Source: Carcharhinus longimanus (taxonomy: Eukaryota). Taken from it: a DNA stretch of 64,000 nucleotides. Where the stretch lies: positions 25,665,595 to 25,729,594 of the forward strand of contig JASCQW010000099.1 in NCBI GenBank assembly GCA_030264375.1. The letters run 5' to 3'. The stretch's first letter is position 1, and every line of letters begins with the position of its first letter. This document shows positions 2,138 through 31,227 of the stretch, piece by piece. The position numbers and the translations under genes were made by a program. The notes under the pieces are model-generated. The model was not told the origin of the DNA. It worked only from the letters and a program-made list of their open reading frames with translations, and made no database searches.

Positions 2138-3937
2138 GTAATGCAGCACAAAGCTCCAGATATCCTGTAGGGTTTTGCATGTGAAACAAAGAAAAAAAAG
2201 ACGAATTTGAATAGCCTCTTTCACAACCCCAGGATTTGCTAAAACGTTTACAACTACTTATACACTTAGTATAGAAACTACTTCAATGGAAACACAGTAG
2301 TTAATTTGAAAACAGCAATGTGACAGTAACATATATACCGTTTTTCGTGGTTTTTTTGATGATTATTATTCAAGATGCAATAGAGAAATCCCTTGTTTTT
2401 CAAGATTGTGTAATGGGATCTTTTGACTTGGTAAGGCTGCTATCATTGAACAATGGCTGACACCGTTCTCAAAACTTTATTTTCGTTCAGTCAGGTTTGT
2501 CCTAAAATCTATTCACGATGAAGAGCATCAAAGGAGAAATGTTTACCTTTCACATTTTAAATGCATGATTTCCTTAACATTCAAGTTGACAGCTAACTTG
2601 ATCAGTCATTGGAAATAGAATAATTAATGCTTTGTTGAGGGGAGTAAAATTGAGTGGCATGGTGTCACTGTTCATGGTGGAGTAACAAACCAAAAGAATT
2701 TGCTGCATTTCTGAACTTGAGACTTCTCCCATTCATTTTGTATAAAGTACTGAGGGGCATTTTGTTTTTTCCAGTAAGTTATCTCAGTAAGTTGGTGTCA
2801 GACTGAGGGACATCTTGAATTGACTTGAAAGGATATTGGGGACGGAGCGGGAATGGATCCGGCTGTCCTTATCCATGTTGAAACTATCAACATTGGTAAG
2901 GGCAGACAGGAGGAAGAATTTAGAGAGAAACACTAGCTAGGGTAGAGCCCTAGTGTAGAGGATAACTAGGGCCGGTCATTCGGACTTTGACCTAGTAAGT
3001 AGTAAAGGAGAACCTGAGTTCAACAAGTAGAAGGAATAATGATAAGAAAACAAATGAAAGGGAAGAGAGTAGGTAGATAGATTCTTGATTGGTATGGGGA
3101 TCAAAGGTTGCAGGGAAAAGGTGGGAAACTGGGGTTAAGAAACTTTATCAGCCATGACTGAATGATGGAGCAGATTCAATGGGCTGAATAGCCTAATTCT
3201 GCTCCTATATTTTATCTTAAGGTCCTATGAAGTGCAGTAACAGTCAGCAATTGTGCAATAGGCACTATAGGACACCTATAAAGAGCTGACATAGATTCAT
3301 TGTCATGGAGCAATATGGCACGAAAACAGGCCCTTCATCCCAATTGATACCTGCTGTCTGTGATGCCCCCCAGCTATTGGATGGGCAAAATGGCACAGCA
3401 GGAGGACATTATGATAAATTATTTCTGTTTGTTGGGTAGTCTAGGATTAGGGGCAAGGTATAAAAATTAGAGTCGCAGCTTTCAGGAAACATTTGCGCAT
3501 ACAATTTGTCCAAGTTTGAACTTGGGTCTGTAAACGACAATTGATGCTAGATCAGTTGGTTTGAAGTCTGAAATTGATATATTTTAATTAACCAAGGTTA
3601 ATAAGAATATGGACCAAAAGTGCGTGGTATGTCTGTGGAGTTAGATCACTGATCATAATGAATGGCAGTGAAATAGCTTGAGGAGCTAAATGGCCCCTCC
3701 TGTTCTCATTTTTATATAAACCATGACATAATTATTTTAATCGAAATACATCTTGTAAACAGTTTGAAAAAAAAACTTCATAATTTATATAGTGATTTCG
3801 TGATCCTCCTGCTGCGATCCCCTCCCCCCCAACTAAACAGTTTATTTGTGTAAGCGTCAATAAATTTTTAAATCTTTTCCATAAAAGATAAGTTTTAGCT
3901 TTAACTTGCCATGATGGAGGTGTATTCCACAAAAGAG

Positions 3938-4038
3938 ATGTCAAGGAAATAATTGAACTTTTAAGTTTGACACTTTGAAATTGATCTCCTTTTGAAAGAA
4001 ATCTAAGAAGAGACCTAATATCCCTCTCTGAGAGAATT
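3938..4038 (+). repeat. Copy 1 of a ~100-nt duplicated intronic module
   Basis: Aligns to 4702-4805: 34/36 identical in the 5' block, 28/33 in the 3' block; central 3981-4005 is the exact reverse complement of 4748-4772. Confidence 0.95.
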
Positions 4039-4701
4039 GAAAGGAAGGTGAAGCTGTCTTTCCCAGAAATATTCACATTGCTCAGAGTTAGGTCAGGACC
4101 CAGCTCCAGAGATATGCGATCTCTGCCTGTTGCCATGGTTTCTTTTGTACTCTTTCTTTCTGTTGTGATTGTTTGTGATTTCCTCTTGAATTGAATACCC
4201 ACATGAAATGAAGTTCTTTAAAAATTCCCTTAGTACATTTATTTGGGATGATATTTTCAAGAGCAAAGTAATTTTTTTTACTGCTATTTTACACTTTTCA
4301 ATCTTTTATAACTTTGGTTTCTTTTTTAATTGAAGCATTTTATTAATTAAAAGTCACGCTCAGCGTGTTTTACTTTGCATGAAATATATATATTGAGTGA
4401 TCTGTTCATGTAATTAACAGTTTGGTTCCAGGCTTATATTTTAAATGGCTATGCATTTACTTTCATAACTCCTCTTCCACTTGTCTGTTTAAAGTATAAA
4501 ACTAACTTTCAAATTGAATGCAACTTTCCAAGTTATTTCTTTCTCATTTTTTTATTCTTCATGTACAGTTCAGTTTGCTGCCAGTCCAGTGAATAAAATT
4601 ACAACACATTGTGACTTTGAGCCTTTTATTTGAAAGGTGGATGGGTCATCATTTCTGATCTGCATGGAAAGGTCACTACATTTCCTGGTTCTGGACAGTT
4701 T

Positions 4702-4805
4702 ATGCCAAGGAGATAATTGAACTTTTAAGTTTGACACCATAGTGAAATAGATTTCTTTCAAAAGGAGATCAAAGAAGGGACTTGCTATCCCTCTCTGAGG
4801 GAATT
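4702..4805 (+). repeat. Copy 2 of the duplicated intronic module
   Basis: Same alignment as for copy 1 (3938-4038). Confidence 0.95.
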
Positions 4806-6327
4806 ATTTTTACAACCAGTTTTCCAAATATTCTTCCTATTACTGTTTTCTCGTAAATGAAGTTAGTTCTTGCGTTAATTTATGAATCTCTAGTTTGTGT
4901 GATATTTCTCATTTCGAAAACATTAGTAACATTGTTCATTAATTAAAGCAAGTAAGATAATTGTTAGCTCCTGGGGCAGTTCTGTGAGGGCACGTGAATG
5001 TAAAAATTCCAAATCATAGGAACACTGCTCAGGCTACAGGAATCGATCTTGAAAATACAAAGTGCTGGAAAGAAAGTACATACCACACCCTGAAAGTTGG
5101 GCTACTGGCACAAGTGTTGTGACAGGAGTGGTGCACAGTTCTTCTGGCTCCTTCGCAAGGGAAAGAGGCTTGCCTCTATATCTTGGGAAGAATATGTTGC
5201 CCATGGAAGGAAATACTATGTAGACTTACCAGAATGATATTGGAGCACAGAGGGTTAAATTATGTAGACATGTTGAATAAATTTGGCCTGATTATAGAAG
5301 GTCAAGGGTTGATGTGAGTGAGCTGCTTAAAAAGTTAAAGGAATGTATAGGGTAATTACAGGGAAATCATTTCCTCCGATGGTGAAATCAAGAATGAGAG
5401 AATGTAAAATTAAAAGTAGAACTCTGCCATTTAGGAGGAAAATCACATGTGTCTCTTCACATAAACAATAGTAGAAATCTGGAATTCTCTTCTTTGGCAG
5501 GCTGAAGATACTGGGACAATTTGAACTTTTAAGACCAAAATTGCTTGGTCTTTTGTGAGTCAGGGTATACAGCGTTCAGGCAGGTAAACATAGTTAAGGT
5601 ACAATGGTGGAGCATGATTAGCAGTATGAAGTCCATATTTTCCCAGACTTCAGGACATTTACGTTTCCAAATCAATACTTTGAACACTAATTCCAAACGT
5701 TTGGGATGATCAGGATGTATATCAGCAGCATCTGAAATATAAGTAACAGTTGTGCTGCGTTTATTTCATTCACACATATTCATCCTCAAGAAGGTGAGAT
5801 ATCCTCACGCAGATACGTATAATCCACTTCCATTTGGCTTCTGTGTGTTTTGCAGCACCCACCGAGCTCAAGAAAGAAGTTATGAAATGCCATAAATAAA
5901 ATGTAAGATTTTGATTGAAATTAGTAATTGATCCCTTTAAAGGATGAATTCTAAAGTTTTGTTGAAATCAAATTAAACCTGATAATATGGACATTGCCAA
6001 GTTGTAGTTCTAGTTTTCCCCATACAAGTTGCAAGAAGTATTTTATCTTCACTGCAGTGATAGTGGCATGAAGTTCAATTCCTCTACCATGTACAAGTGG
6101 CTGATTGAAGCTGGTGAACAAGGTCTCAAGACACTTTAATGATGCAAATCAAATCTTTAACCATCAGACTCTGCAGGAAGCAACAAGGCTTCATTTTCAC
6201 TTCAAAGTACCTATTTGTTCCTAACTTGTTTTCTTGATGAAACCAAATTTGCTTCAAGTCTAAAGTTTTCTGAACACAAATATTCTGTTTTTTTCATGCA
6301 TTTAAAAACTCTCTCTTCATTTTACAG

Positions 6328-6498
6328 TTTGGAAATTCTTATCATGAAGCAGCAGGCAAAAAAAGAAAACTTGAAGTTGCTCAGTCACATGCAGATGCTC
6401 TTAATTCTCAAGTGGAAAATGGCTGTGAAAGTATTATTCTCAAGTGCCGAAGTATACGAATAGGAAGCTTTCGTGCAACAGTATTGGAACCCGTTATT
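6328..6498 (+). CDS. SENP6: SENP6 exon: FGNSYHEAAGKKRKL...ESIILKCRSIRIGSFRATVLEPVI
   Basis: tttacag| acceptor, |gtaagt donor, 171 nt phase 0-0; matches SENP6 FGNS...SVILNCRSIRVG...EPVI. Confidence 0.95.
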
Positions 6499-18783: not shown

Positions 18784-21209
18784 GTAAGCATGTTATTGTA
18801 CTACTGTAGTTCATTTCCATTGATTAACTTGTTTTGCAGATATCTGGTTTTAAAAAAAACAAATAAACCCAAACAAATAATAGAAATATAAAGTTGAAAG
18901 ATGCATCTTTGTTCTTCTATACCTCTACAGACTTGGGTGTGTGCTGAGTGCAAACTGACAGACTTTCATCTTATGACACCTTATTGAAATCACATTACAC
19001 AGGTTTCAATAAGGCCTTTGAAAGGCAAGGAACCAGCATATAAGAAACATTCAGAACAGAAAAGGTTACTTGCTCATTCATAACATGCATCGACAAGTTT
19101 TTGAACTTTGCATTGCCATGAGCAGTTGGCTGACTCCTTCCCTTTATAATTTTGAAAACTTGAATTCTACCATCTCAAAGTTTCTCCTATCTCTTGTGGA
19201 AGGGAGGAACTTACAATATTCTTAAATTTTCACAGAACTTAAATTTTTGACTGTTGCAATCTTCCTTATTGTTTGCCTTTCAAGAGTTGTCATCATCCTT
19301 ACTGTCATTAGATGACCAAACGTATACAGTACTCAGGATGTGATTTGGATGCCAACACAATTACAATCCAATTGTTAGAAAATTTTTCCATTTGGACTTG
19401 TATAGAGACTATCATGACCTCAATACATTCCCTAAAGGAGTACTTGCAGTCACTGTTGCATTGTAAGGAATATGACAATTAATTAGTACACAGTAAGGTC
19501 CCCAATGTGAGACCAGAATTTTTTTTAATAATATTGGTGGCAGGATAGCAGTAGCTAAAATGTTGAGAGCTCCCCCTTTTTGTGAAATAGTGGCGTGGGA
19601 CCTTTCATGTCCATCTGAAAGCACAGACAAGAACTCCTTTTAATGCCTCATCTAAATGGCAGCACCTTCATTAGTGCAGCACTTTTGGAGTACTGCACAG
19701 GTGTTTCACATAAGCTTTAGTGGTAGTGTCTGATAATTCCTGAATATACAACTCCCAACCCATGAATCTTTTGGCTGCTCAAGTTAACTATAGTGCTTCT
19801 GGGACAGAAAAATAATAGGCCAATGTTTAGTTTGGACCAATTGAGAATGGAAGGAATGCAAGGATTAGAATTCTGTGAAAAATCTGAAGAACAATGGGAA
19901 TGCTGTAGGAAAATAAGAACGGCTGAGATCACTTGGTCTTTCTCCNNNNNNNNNNNNNNNNNNNNNNNNNNNGTATAGTATGGTAAAAGATGAATATCTC
20001 CAATTATTCCAAGTGCAAGTTTCTTGAAGTTAAATACGCTGCCAGGTGTTGAAGAATTCCTCAGCCTTGGGTGTAAGAAGTAGATTTATGTAGGAGGGAA
20101 GAATGGAATGCAAACAGACTGGTCCCAGTATTTACCTATCTGATTCTATCTGGACTGATGACCAAAGAGAGTTGATTACTGTTTCTGTTGGTAGATGTAT
20201 ATCAAATCCTGCTTGCCTTCTCTTTGGCTTACTTGCCACCAAAAATCTGTTGATCATAGGCTTGAAGCTTGATGCTCATTGAAACATCCACAGCCCTGTG
20301 AGCTGAAGAATTTCAAAGATACACAGCATATTGAATGAAGACATTTCTCCTCATCTCGACTAATTAATCTCGACCAAATAACTAACTCCTTAACTGGAGA
20401 TTCTTTGGCAAGGGAAACACCCTTTCAGCATCCACTCTGCCAAGCACTTTGGGAATGTTATGTTTTGCAGAGATAACTTCTCATTCTTCTAAGCTTCAGA
20501 GAGTACATTCTAATCAATCTCTTCTCGTAGGACAGCCTTCTCATCCCAGAAACCAATCTGGTAAAACTAACTTACGTGCTATCTACCGTGTATATCCTTT
20601 TATGATGGATAGTCTATAATAAAATATAATTTTAATAGCTAAGATAAAAAATCCTATGGCAATGGTCAAAGAGGAGTAGGAGAATTCACTTGGTATGAGT
20701 GCTGGCCAGTATATATCCTCCAACCAACACCAAAAGGACATTTATTTGATCATTTATTTCATTGTTGTTTGTAAGAGCTTAGCATATGAAAATTGGCTAC
20801 TGCAATGGGGAGATGCTCCGAGGTCACGAAAGGTGCCTTATAAATGCCAATTTTTTCTTGCCCTCTTGACTCTGATGTGAAGAATGGCTTCTCCTGAAAG
20901 ATATAGGGTATGCTACCAGTGTCTGAAAATCCATTTAAACAGGAATTGGTACCCTCAGGAAAATTTATTGGGAAGCGGGGGACATCATTACTGAAGAAAT
21001 GCTGTTTTTGTTCTTCATTTTGAATGTAATTTCTACCAGGAATGGAATAGCAGCGTTGGCCTCAGAGCTGCATCCTCTTTTACTCCTTTAGTTGAAAATG
21101 CTAATCAAGTGATCAAGATACAAGTCGTTATGCCTTGACCTCACTCGTGCCTACAATTTTATAAAAATATAGCTATCTGTTCTTTGAACCATCCCATATC
21201 TTACATTAT

Positions 21210-27610: not shown

Positions 27611-27834
27611 GATGTGGATATGCCGGCGTTGGACTGGGATAAACACAGTAAAAAGTCTGACAACACCAGGTTTAAGTCCAACCGATTTATTTGTTAGTAA
27701 ACTCACTGGCTTTCGCGGTTTCCCTCTTCAAAGGTTTCTTTCTTCTTGAAGAGGGAAACCTCGAAACTTAGTGAGTTTACTATCAAATAAATTGGCTGGA
27801 CTTAAACCTGGTGTTGTCAGACTTTTTACTGTGT
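27611..27834. mobile_element. Palindromic Penelope-like insertion with 13-bp target duplication
   Basis: 89-nt inverted arms 27643-27731 / 27746-27834; TCCTCCAGAAAAA at 27598-27610 and 27834-27846. Confidence 0.8.
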
Positions 27835-28160: not shown

Positions 28161-28283
28161 GTATTTAGTACTTGAAAAGATCAAACAGCAGGATGCAGAT
28201 AGAGTGCACGTTTTCAGTTCCTTTTTTTACAAACGACTGAATCAGCGAGAACGACGGAATGTTCCAGAATCTGCCAATCTATC
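28161..28283 (+). CDS. SENP6: SENP6 exon: [41 protein letters not shown]
   Basis: ctgcag| acceptor, |gtaagc donor, 123 nt phase 2-2; [16 protein letters not shown] matches SENP6. Confidence 0.98.
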
Positions 28284-31227
28284 GTAAGCTTTCATAACTG
28301 AGAATCAAGAGTTATGTAATTTGCCTCCCTATTGAAGTGGAATACGCGAAAAGGTTTTTGCGAAGAAATCCTATATTCTCCCACGGTTTTTCTCCACCCA
28401 CCCCACTGCCACCACAGGGAAGAAAGCAAGAGCAATTGATGTTTGCGCTGGCCATCCATATCAAGGCATTAATTTGTCACTGATGTTCTTTTGAAAATAT
28501 TTTCAGCTCAATTTGAACAACTTTTGTTTTCCACTTTCTACATGGGACACATTTGGGGAAAAAAAAACAATGTAATCAGCTATGTGCTCCTTTAGTAAGG
28601 AAATATACTGGATCACTCTGCTTTAACCTTGAGTATCGCAGGTTGAAAATGTCCCTTCCTATTACACCGTCTTGTTTGAGTATAGATGCACTCAATAACT
28701 TTTGCATGTTGTTTACTTCTCTAAGAATCAATGGCAGGGGGTTTCCAGCTTGCCCACTTGCCAGACTGCATTCAGGTTAAATAACAGAACACCCCTGGCT
28801 GGCTTGTGCAGAGACGCAGTTCACATCTTAATTTGTATAATGGAGAGAGTTAATTTTTTTTGATAATTTCCCCAGAGTCTTGGGCATTAGATCCCCTCCA
28901 TAGCTTAAACGTTTTATTGGATTTTCACTGCAGTTATTAAGAGATTTTACCACAGAAATGGACAGACAGAATGGAATAAATCCATTGTGCCTATGTTGGC
29001 TGTTAGCTCGTGCGGCCCATTACTTACCACAGTGTATTTTTCTCTCTCCATTGCTGTGTATTTTACACTGCTCCAAATGTTTCTTTTTGCATAATTTTCT
29101 TTCAAAAGATACAATGCTCCCACCGCGCGCGCACGCGCACACACACAACCAGAATCTATTGTACAGGTTTCCTGACCGTCCTGTGGTTTTTTTACTACAG
29201 GCCACCTTTAATTTTTTCTAACAGTTTCCTATCCGATTAACAGCTGGCTACTTGCCAAGCAGGAAATCTTGCAGCACAAAGTCACATCAGAGCTGTGCTG
29301 AGATTGGGTAGGTCAAGGGGGGGCACATAGTAGATGTAATCACTTGGGGCCCGTTGATGGAGGTCGTGCGGAAGTGGAGAAGACCTTTACTGGGTTCCTT
29401 GCTCATTGTTAAAGAGACTCATGGTCCCTACTCATGCTGTCTGACAAGAGAAAATACTTTTGCTTATGAAAATCTTATATACCTTTTAAAATCAAGTATA
29501 TGTGGCCTTCCCTGTTCCAGCATGAACCTCAAGTGTGGTTTCTGACTCTAGCATCAAGCTGAAGCTTTATGGTCTCTTTTGTTTTTATGCTTGTTTTCCT
29601 AAGTGGATGTCTGAAACTAGAGCTAATATTTTACAGTAAGTTAACCAATGATGTCCCTACACTTAATGCTGCTATTTATAAAACTCAAAATGCTGTTTGA
29701 TGTTTTGTAGGTTTCTCTGCCTGTACACTCATTTTCAGGGAATCATGTACTTGAATCCCCAGATGTCCATTAATTCAATCTCTTTGGTGATTTTCCATGG
29801 AGCTTCCTGATTTCCTCAAAACTGTATTGGATCGCACTTATCCACATCAAATGATATGATCCACCTGTTCTCTCAGTTCACTGATCTATGCTATTCATGT
29901 TGTTATGTTTTGTTTTGCAGTATGTGTCTGAACTTTTACTACAAATCGCCTATAGTGCATCTTTTCAAATGTCCATGTGTTGCATCTACACATCTACGTG
30001 TTTTGTTTTAATCTATCTTTACTTTTTCAAAGTAAAGTCATTAACTTGAACAAACGTGGCTTGCCTCTACTGAACCTGTTCTATCTGTTCTGGATGATTA
30101 ACTCACATTTCTAATGTAACTTGAATTATGAATTTCATGAATTTTCTCGCAGCTGTCCTGAAATGATCTGTAATTAGTTGGTATTATCCTTCCCTCCGTT
30201 CTTGGATAATTTATTCCGAGTTACCTTTAGTTATCTGGCACAGTTACTTGTCTAAGATGAATTGAAACATTGCGATCAGAGCCTTAGCTGTCACCTTCCT
30301 AATTTGACTAAATGGTTCGATGTGCAAGTCAACAGGGCCCAGAAACCTATCCCGTGGCACTTTGTAAATCCTTTTCTATAGCTAAAATAACATTCAGGAG
30401 AATGTTCCGTGAATTGGAAATGACCCAAGTGTTTCTGTGTAAGTGTATTCAAATGCTTTATTCGATTTTGATCAAACTTGGAGATGGATTTTTGTCTATT
30501 TAGCTTTCGTAACATACTTCCTTTTACATCTGTGCTNNNNNNNNNNNNTTCCAATGTCCATGCTGACATGCTTCAACATATTCAAAATGCAGATGCCTGT
30601 CTCCTGTTCTACAACATGTCTATCTCACCTTTTAACACCTTACCCCCTGCTCTCTTTGCTTTGACCTTTTTTAATCTCAAAGTAAAACTCGTTAAATTTT
30701 ACAAACCAGGCTTATTTCTAATAAATCTGTTCTGACTATTCTTGATGATTATCACACATTTCTAAATGCTAATTTAACTTGGAGTATGGATTCTATGTAG
30801 AAATACACTGGCTCCCTGAATTTCCTAGTGTGTGTGCTTTAAAATCTTTCTTATTTAACCCCTCGTTCTTCTCTAACTTCGCAACCTCTTCCAGCTTTGA
30901 ATCCCCTCAAGCATTTTCTGCATCTTTCTCCTATTGTATCCTGCCGTCATTTGCAGAAATTCAGGATATCTCGGGTCTACTCTCTGAAATGCCTTAAGAA
31001 GTTCCTTGGGGTGTTTAAAATGTTAAGGTGCCATGTAAATATTGTCACAAAACTAAGGGTTCTCAAGCATTTGTAACACTGCCCAAAATTAGACTTCTAA
31101 TGAAAATTGAAAGCTATGTTAATTGATTAAATTTATCAAGTATAACATGAATCAGTTTTAGTTATGTACTTCTCTGTTATATGTACATATGCGTTATAGT
31201 CTCAATAAGCCTTCTGATACCATTTAG

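Follow-up and report, generated by a model that had tools for sequence, protein, structure and literature searches.

Do two intronic repeats with perfectly complementary cores in shark SENP6 represent an RNA structure kept by selection or the by-product of a mutation? The question arises from a first-pass annotation of a 64,000-nucleotide stretch of Carcharhinus longimanus DNA (the window), which read the two repeats as a selected, symmetric RNA element with a domain-swapped topology and gave a local duplication followed by microinversion of a quasi-palindrome as the neutral alternative. We found that the pattern itself, the predicted helix between the copies, the nontransposon nature of the repeats, and, under one scoring model, the unusual strength of the acceptor-like site lying between them stood up to analysis, whereas the selected symmetric element and the domain swap did not.

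A duplicated module with an inverted core in a SENP6 intron

The proposed host gene was confirmed as SENP6. A tblastn search with shark SENP6 placed one coding exon at positions 1884 to 2137 of the plus strand, ending in a phase-0 donor (2137/2138), and the next at 6328 to 6498 of the same strand, where shark and ray SENP6 proteins matched (17 of 18 candidates passed, the best being that of Mustelus asterias, at 96% identity). Both modules lie on the sense strand of the intervening intron (2138 to 6327, plus strand).

The module is 104 bases long and occurs twice, 760 nt apart, as copy 1 (3938 to 4038), probably the newer, and copy 2 (4702 to 4805), probably at the original site, both on the plus strand. 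All of the coordinates and identity counts given in the first-pass annotation were reproduced. The left flanks (3938 to 3973 and 4702 to 4737) are identical at 34 of 36 positions and the right flanks (4006 to 4038 and 4773 to 4805) at 28 of 33; combined, the flanks are direct repeats with 10 differences in 76 sites. The plus-strand cores (core 1, 3981 to 4005; core 2, 4748 to 4772), which are 742 nt apart, agree at only 16 of 25 positions when read directly but are reverse-complementary at 25 of 25, and the positions at which they differ span core letters 2 to 24. A deletion after position 3975 has left copy 1 three letters shorter than copy 2, and once its core is righted, 10 of 101 sites distinguish the two copies. 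The inverted match is not a matter of chance, because the longest such match over 200 doublet-shuffled versions of the intron was only 18 nt (median, 12), compared with the real 25. Core 1 is an in-place inversion of core 2 with the form of a microinversion (exact, at least 15 nt long, and set between colinear flanks), the polarity of which is given by a related shark, F, described below. The feature is a real, young 104-base duplication with a microinverted hairpin core in one intron.

Homology ended sharply at the module edges, as first described. A search of the genome with the module returned the same two copies and no others; the left flank (at most 1 mismatch) and the core (at most 2 mismatches) were each found at two places, and the whole 951-nt region and the acceptor region matched once each, all of these counts being lower bounds. 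With two genomic places each for core and flank, the module does not have the many copies of a MITE or other dispersed transposon, which agrees with the earlier failure to recognize one, and no target-site duplication is visible in the sequence at the core edges.

No Rfam family matched at the gathering score anywhere in the 64 kb, and the four matches below that score between 2500 and 6500 were at chance level (E-values of 3.7 to 8.4). A C/D snoRNA was rejected on the weakness of the GlsR6 match (15 bits against a cutoff of 75), as was a hammerhead ribozyme, which had been prompted by GAAA and CUGA-like words; Rfam reported no hammerhead, and the hammerhead catalytic core is, by eye, incomplete in both copies. 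A 20-mer metagenome scan gave eight matches, none continuing across the module. In the literature searched (titles and the openings of abstracts, most subscription papers lying outside it), no paper describing this intronic element was found, and none located a structured element, a poison exon, or a polyadenylation site within a SENP6 intron. SENP6 was likewise absent from the text supplements of PMC8052449 (five files) and PMC11632617 (one file), which may not include the large tables.

The inverted cores are predicted to form a single long-range helix

The core is a quasi-palindrome, that is, an imperfect inverted repeat with 8 of 12 Watson-Crick pairs. Core 2 alone is predicted to form a 9-pair RNA hairpin with two G-U pairs (−7.0 kcal/mol), and it does so on the sense strand only, whereas core 1 alone has no predicted fold (0.0 kcal/mol) because the inversion turns the two G-U mismatches into C-A. 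The earlier description of each core as a poor hairpin alone therefore holds for core 1 but not for core 2. The inverted repeat sits inside the inverted segment, with a single paired base beyond the minimal inverted span.

Together, the two cores give a predicted duplex of −36.0 kcal/mol. In a fold of positions 3900 to 4850, the pair probability of the intercopy helix was ~1.0 (0.999), and it was 0.0 when the core was left uninverted; the 25-bp helix claimed at the outset is thus predicted to form. Other parts of the claimed structure fared less well. The UGAAA/AGAAG junction said to close both ends of the helix is indeed identical at the two ends, which is an automatic consequence of the duplication itself, but it has no predicted pairing (summed probabilities of 0.023 and 0.0). 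A second, 8-nt pairing between the copies is complementary as described but has a probability of ~0.02. The core helix is the sole crossing between the copies in the prediction, and a domain-swapped topology is not supported by the model, since the term overstates a one-helix crossing. Three repeat-derived duplexes elsewhere in the same pre-mRNA have predicted energies of −187 to −266 kcal/mol compared with −36 kcal/mol for the core helix, which is therefore not the main source of double-stranded RNA in SENP6.

A candidate last exon lies between the cores

The looped-out stretch had been said to contain a cryptic acceptor, and we found a putative site, a U-rich tract followed by AG 4567-4568 (4540 to 4568, plus strand), that is unusually strong under one scoring model. 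We built acceptor matrices from the 13 SENP6 acceptors in five variants. The site ranked first of 3,217 intronic AGs with our home-made matrix, first of ~3,215 in four variants, and 8th of 3,221 in the fifth, and in four of the five it outscored all 13 real acceptors. Across the five variants, the chance of such an acceptor per 742 nt was 0.002 to 0.06. By a plain count of pyrimidines, 39 of 3,223 AGs equaled or beat it and 28 of 70 tiles contained an equally good site.

Downstream of the acceptor come seven in-frame codons, a stop (4590 to 4592), AATAAA (4592 to 4597), and U/GU-rich sequence, and the AATAAA survives a one-letter deletion in a related shark, E. Positions 4569 to 4597 (plus strand) thus make up a candidate alternative last exon, and the stretch from 4540 to 4630 has the layout of one that could cut SENP6 before its protease domain. 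The predicted helix would enclose the whole candidate exon and could hide it.

Annotated proteins gave no sign of its use. Among 106 chondrichthyan proteins, all 105 isoforms spanning the junction joined both exons directly and none ended there, only 8 of the junction-spanning isoforms coming from the closest named relative; in a search of short proteins for truncated SENP6, 1 of 175 candidates passed, and it reads through. This lack of protein support is weak counterevidence, such transcripts being often unannotated and unstable ones being missed. Inhibition of CDK12/13 leads to truncated SENP6 transcripts in humans (PMC13478345) and mouse Senp6 shows CCAR1-dependent splicing (bioRxiv 2023.09.18.557780), the relevant passages of both sources giving no site.

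A further acceptor-like site followed by AATAAA lies at 18840, just past an exon ending near 18807, and is another candidate cryptic last exon.

A related shark appears to carry a single module

Parts of the region were present in 23 sequencing runs, none of them recorded as RNA, and we compared 6 of these: X4, X10 (sample D), X19 (sample E), X22 and X23 (one sample, F), and X8, which lacks coverage of copy 1. Between 3700 and 4950, where D and E are each represented by one contig, D differs from the window at 33 of 1,251 letters and E at 83 of 1,251. The individual variants considered over this interval comprise 40 of 107 substitutions and 12 of 18 indels. Judging from the counts, the first aligned piece of each contig masks the second and the outer 30 nt at either end of a piece conceal any differences, such that core 2 of E and core 1 of D lie outside view and both cores are visible in X4 only.

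D and E carry both copies, and contigs from other studies (X4, X10, and X19) show the same arrangement, two of them spanning the whole stretch in one contig. In the copy 2 alignment, D and E each give two pieces from one contig. Both have 3 letters after 3975 that are absent from copy 1 of the window, so the copies were once equal in length. The piece representing copy 1 of E has 14 differences from copy 2, which split exactly into 3 in the left flank, 3 in the spacer, and 8 in the core, indicating that core 1 is inverted in E too. Copy 2 of D has 3 differences, none in the core, and copy 1 of X4 has 1 substitution and ~3 letters missing within 3994 to 4035, where depth dips.

F is different. 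Each of its runs has a single module, at 4690 to 4815, with the surroundings of copy 2 and no loose ends, in contigs that reach 796 nt upstream of the module at depths of 3.3 (X22) and 7.0 (X23); in contigs of such low depth, a second module appears absent, which is not proof of absence. The F module has 10 differences from copy 2. Seven are visible, all of them copy 1 flank letters and none in the core, and the 3 hidden ones equal in number the 3 copy 1 letters remaining in the hidden end zones. The F core has the orientation of core 2, which is probably ancestral, and all 65 letters visible in F are those of righted copy 1 (P = 0.012 at 6.6%). At position 4782, D, E, and the window have a letter in common that differs from the copy 1 letter kept by F, so F falls outside the other three.

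The two-copy state is young because the flank versions had not diverged when F split. Even if F has or had a copy 1, the match between its module and the copy 1 flanks bounds the duplication to near the F split, at roughly 7 to 8% intron divergence. Copy 1 most likely arose later, as a duplicate restricted to one lineage and with its near-palindromic core inverted, and the two-copy form is unlikely in chimaera, bony fish, and tetrapods.

The copies change at roughly the background rate

Copy 1 of E has 5 substitutions in 101 positions compared with 14 in 283 alongside (Fisher P = 1.0, assuming that all E differences up to 4083 are counted), and the divergence between the two copies (10/101) is near that between the window and E (83/1,251). 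In the cores, 1 change was seen on the side branches compared with 2.3 expected (P = 0.33); inclusion of the window lineage, which had prompted the flagging of the locus, gives an expectation of 4.0 (P = 0.09). That sole change, 3989 C>T in E, improves the local palindrome of core 1 and would leave a U-G pair if core 2 is unchanged, the partner base (4764) being masked in E; ~32% of random core changes would leave a wobble pair anyway. The first-pass annotation had named a lack of compensatory changes as evidence against its own reading, and none was seen, either in X4 with both cores in view or in the visible parts of the cores of the other samples. The second module was not found in F, copy 1 of E changes at the background rate, and copy 1 of the window itself lost 3 letters. 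The apparently single module of F, the rate in E, and the lack of compensatory changes together argue against the selected, symmetric two-module element originally proposed and cover most of the outcomes that the first-pass annotation had listed as refuting it.

Several contrasts speak against neutrality, all of them post hoc, and the perfect core match was the reason for flagging. The cores have 0 differences in 25 sites compared with 10 in 76 for the flanks (P = 0.063), and between F and copy 2 the corresponding figures are 0 in 25 and 7 in 43 (P = 0.042). All 7 visible flank differences fall on the copy 2 branch, with no such change assigned to either copy 1 or F (P = 0.016, or 0.06 with a clustered loop change counted as one event). 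The same constancy and asymmetry would result had switching between the copies made the cores perfect again at a later time.

A likely neutral origin by template switching

The neutral alternative fits the comparative data best, and we consider it likely that the locus is a local duplication whose quasi-palindromic core was inverted by template switching, that it is selectively neutral, and that the helix is a by-product. The ancestor would have had one module, at the copy 2 site and with the copy 2 core. At around the time of the F split, 104 bases would have been copied 760 nt upstream, the core being copied off the opposite strand in the same event or afterwards. Direct duplication of a quasi-palindrome in itself yields an imperfect inverted repeat (16/25), which an intercopy switch would make perfect, and both copies would have been drifting at roughly the background rate since then. 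We favor the neutral origin because the single F module combines copy 1 flank letters with core 2, because copy 1 of E changes at the background rate and the constancy of the cores is within chance, because the size and exactness of the inversion match published microinversions (PMC8755829), and because duplications and inverted runs are common nearby and stronger duplexes occur in the same pre-mRNA. Counting against it are the post hoc contrasts between core and flank, the asymmetry of the copy 2 branch, and the identity of F with righted copy 1; the very strong acceptor, stop, and poly(A) signal in the loop and a combination that is rare locally; and the position of the inverted repeat inside the inverted segment with one paired base outside.

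Published microinversions (Potapova, Kondrashov, and Mirkin 2022, PMC8755829) are 17 to 33 nt long, exact in 45 of 59 cases, and tied to inverted repeats. The SENP6 inversion is like them in being 23 to 25 nt long, exact, and intronic and may be so in its association with an imperfect inverted repeat, but here the inverted and uninverted versions are paralogous neighbors in one intron, giving a long-range helix, and the inverted repeat lies within the segment rather than flanking it. Selection is not required for template switching to produce reverse-complement copies that are perfect (Loytynoja and Goldman 2017, PMC5453318; Monttinen and Loytynoja 2022, PMC8794818), and the process also homogenizes imperfect inverted repeats (Abraham and Hazkani-Covo 2021, PMC8604942). 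The four-point model of such mutations resembles our case in that short reverse-complement copying leads to perfect stems, arm homogenization, and inversions. The published events are short-range, however, with spacers of at most 70 nt in the yeast study, and because a 104-nt direct duplication at 760 nt is required here as well, at least four switches or two events would be needed.

Pairs of conserved complementary regions (PCCRs) suppress intervening exons and are proposed as a guard against intronic polyadenylation (Kalmykova et al. 2021, PMC8052449). The SENP6 cores share with them a stable long-range complementarity between two intronic regions (predicted at −36.0 kcal/mol, with a pair probability of ~1.0), here around a putative cryptic acceptor and a poly(A) signal; PCCRs, in contrast, are defined in vertebrate-conserved regions, and the SENP6 pair appears limited to one shark lineage and, in its visible part, has no compensatory change. 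Duplication has also been proposed as a source of new pairings at mutually exclusive exons, where a duplication touching a stem-loop creates new intercopy pairings (Ivanov and Pervouchine 2018, PMC6071210). In those systems one arm and an exon are duplicated, whereas here a whole hairpin was duplicated and inverted and no exon is involved, and a plain duplicate of the SENP6 module is predicted not to form the helix.

The same copying accident might afterwards have been kept by selection as an RNA bridge whose helix would place the 4569 acceptor and the 4592 poly(A) signal in a loop and would suppress or tune a last exon able to truncate SENP6 ahead of its protease domain. We regard this as unlikely. 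No compensatory change was seen, the constraint on the cores is not significant, the second module is apparently absent in F, 3 letters within or next to core 1 may be missing from X4, and the acceptor score derives from a 13-site model, while all 105 isoforms join the exons directly and no truncated short protein was found. Set against these points, the predicted helix depends entirely on the inversion (pair probability of 0.999 with it, 0.0 without it); the acceptor beats 3,216 other intronic AGs and leads in frame into seven codons, a stop, and an AATAAA that survives the deletion in E; no pairing-breaking substitution is visible in the cores of X4, D, E, and F; and precedents exist in PCCRs (PMC8052449) and in human SENP6 truncation under CDK12/13 inhibition (PMC13478345). 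A different form of selection, in which the single ancestral module is the constrained element (a protein-binding site or a small structured RNA) and its duplicate is redundant, such that each lineage keeps one copy and the other drifts, would account for the match of F to righted copy 1 at all 65 visible letters, for changes confined to copy 2 in the window lineage, for five changes in copy 1 of E alongside four ancestral letters kept in its copy 2 right flank, and for the folding of core 2 on the sense strand only. It is nevertheless very improbable, given that no Rfam family matched at the gathering score (best E-value, 3.7), that the copy 1 supposedly kept in the window has a nonfolding core and a 3-letter deletion, and that the rate of change over both copies together equals the background.

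Already largely refuted, and hardly credible now, is the idea that a small DNA transposon had the cores as its terminal inverted repeats, or that the pattern is an assembly error. Perfect inverted arms of 25 nt around 742 nt do resemble a MITE, but core and flank each occur at only two genomic places, the core edges show no target-site duplication, and F has an intact flank-core-flank rather than an empty site; an assembly error is countered by the X4, X10, and X19 contigs from other studies.

If the favored neutral origin is correct, the locus is a caution that a perfect, symmetric-looking long-range helix can arise in one mutational step and look selected, since duplication leaves a quasi-palindrome ready to be copied in reverse complement. 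It is doubtful that we have instead caught an RNA bridge just after its birth, its 25-bp helix hiding a truncating last exon while the sister lineages have one module. Such a newborn bridge, if real, would show a one-step origin of regulatory intronic pairings and provide a natural before-and-after pair of species, and co-option would make it a datable case of how long-range pairings come to conceal cryptic exons and poly(A) sites, in a gene, SENP6, that trims SUMO chains.

Duplications and inversions in the surrounding sequence

We surveyed 464 kb around the locus (387 kb of which is non-N, with 77,209 N). Perfect inverted runs of at least 25 nt within 2 kb of each other numbered 20, several of them from the same repeat pairs, and there were 41 local direct pairs of at least 50 nt. 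Five of the latter, including the SENP6 module, are low-copy duplications within the region, and the SENP6 module alone has an inverted part. Duplication and inversion are thus each common nearby, and their combination is rare.

Within SENP6, a perfect inverted repeat of 38 nt (27643 to 27834; −66.8 kcal/mol), its arms separated by 116 nt, lies 330 nt upstream of the exon at 28161; it consists of a dispersed repeat that folds back in a similar way at several nearby places. An older direct duplication in the gene (30027 to 30134 and 30677 to 30792), with 73% identity over copies 543 nt apart, is without an inverted part. Some 63 to 64 kb upstream of the window start, and upstream of the first mapped SENP6 coding exon, is a locally low-copy inverted pair of 140 nt with 95% identity, the arms of which are 972 nt apart and contain a 63-nt perfect run.

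Smaller features of a similar kind are found in the modules. A 3-bp mini-stem with a 4-nt loop stands directly before the core (4735 to 4744 in copy 2, 3971 to 3977 in copy 1), and in copy 1 of the window, it has been lost through the 3-letter deletion. The loop in copy 2 is one letter from an in-place inversion of the loop present in F and, within copy 1, in D and E, and it may be a second, tiny inversion. The derived changes in copy 2 at 4778 and 4800 each perfect, by eye, a small palindrome with 4789 to 4793, as would be expected of quasi-palindrome correction.
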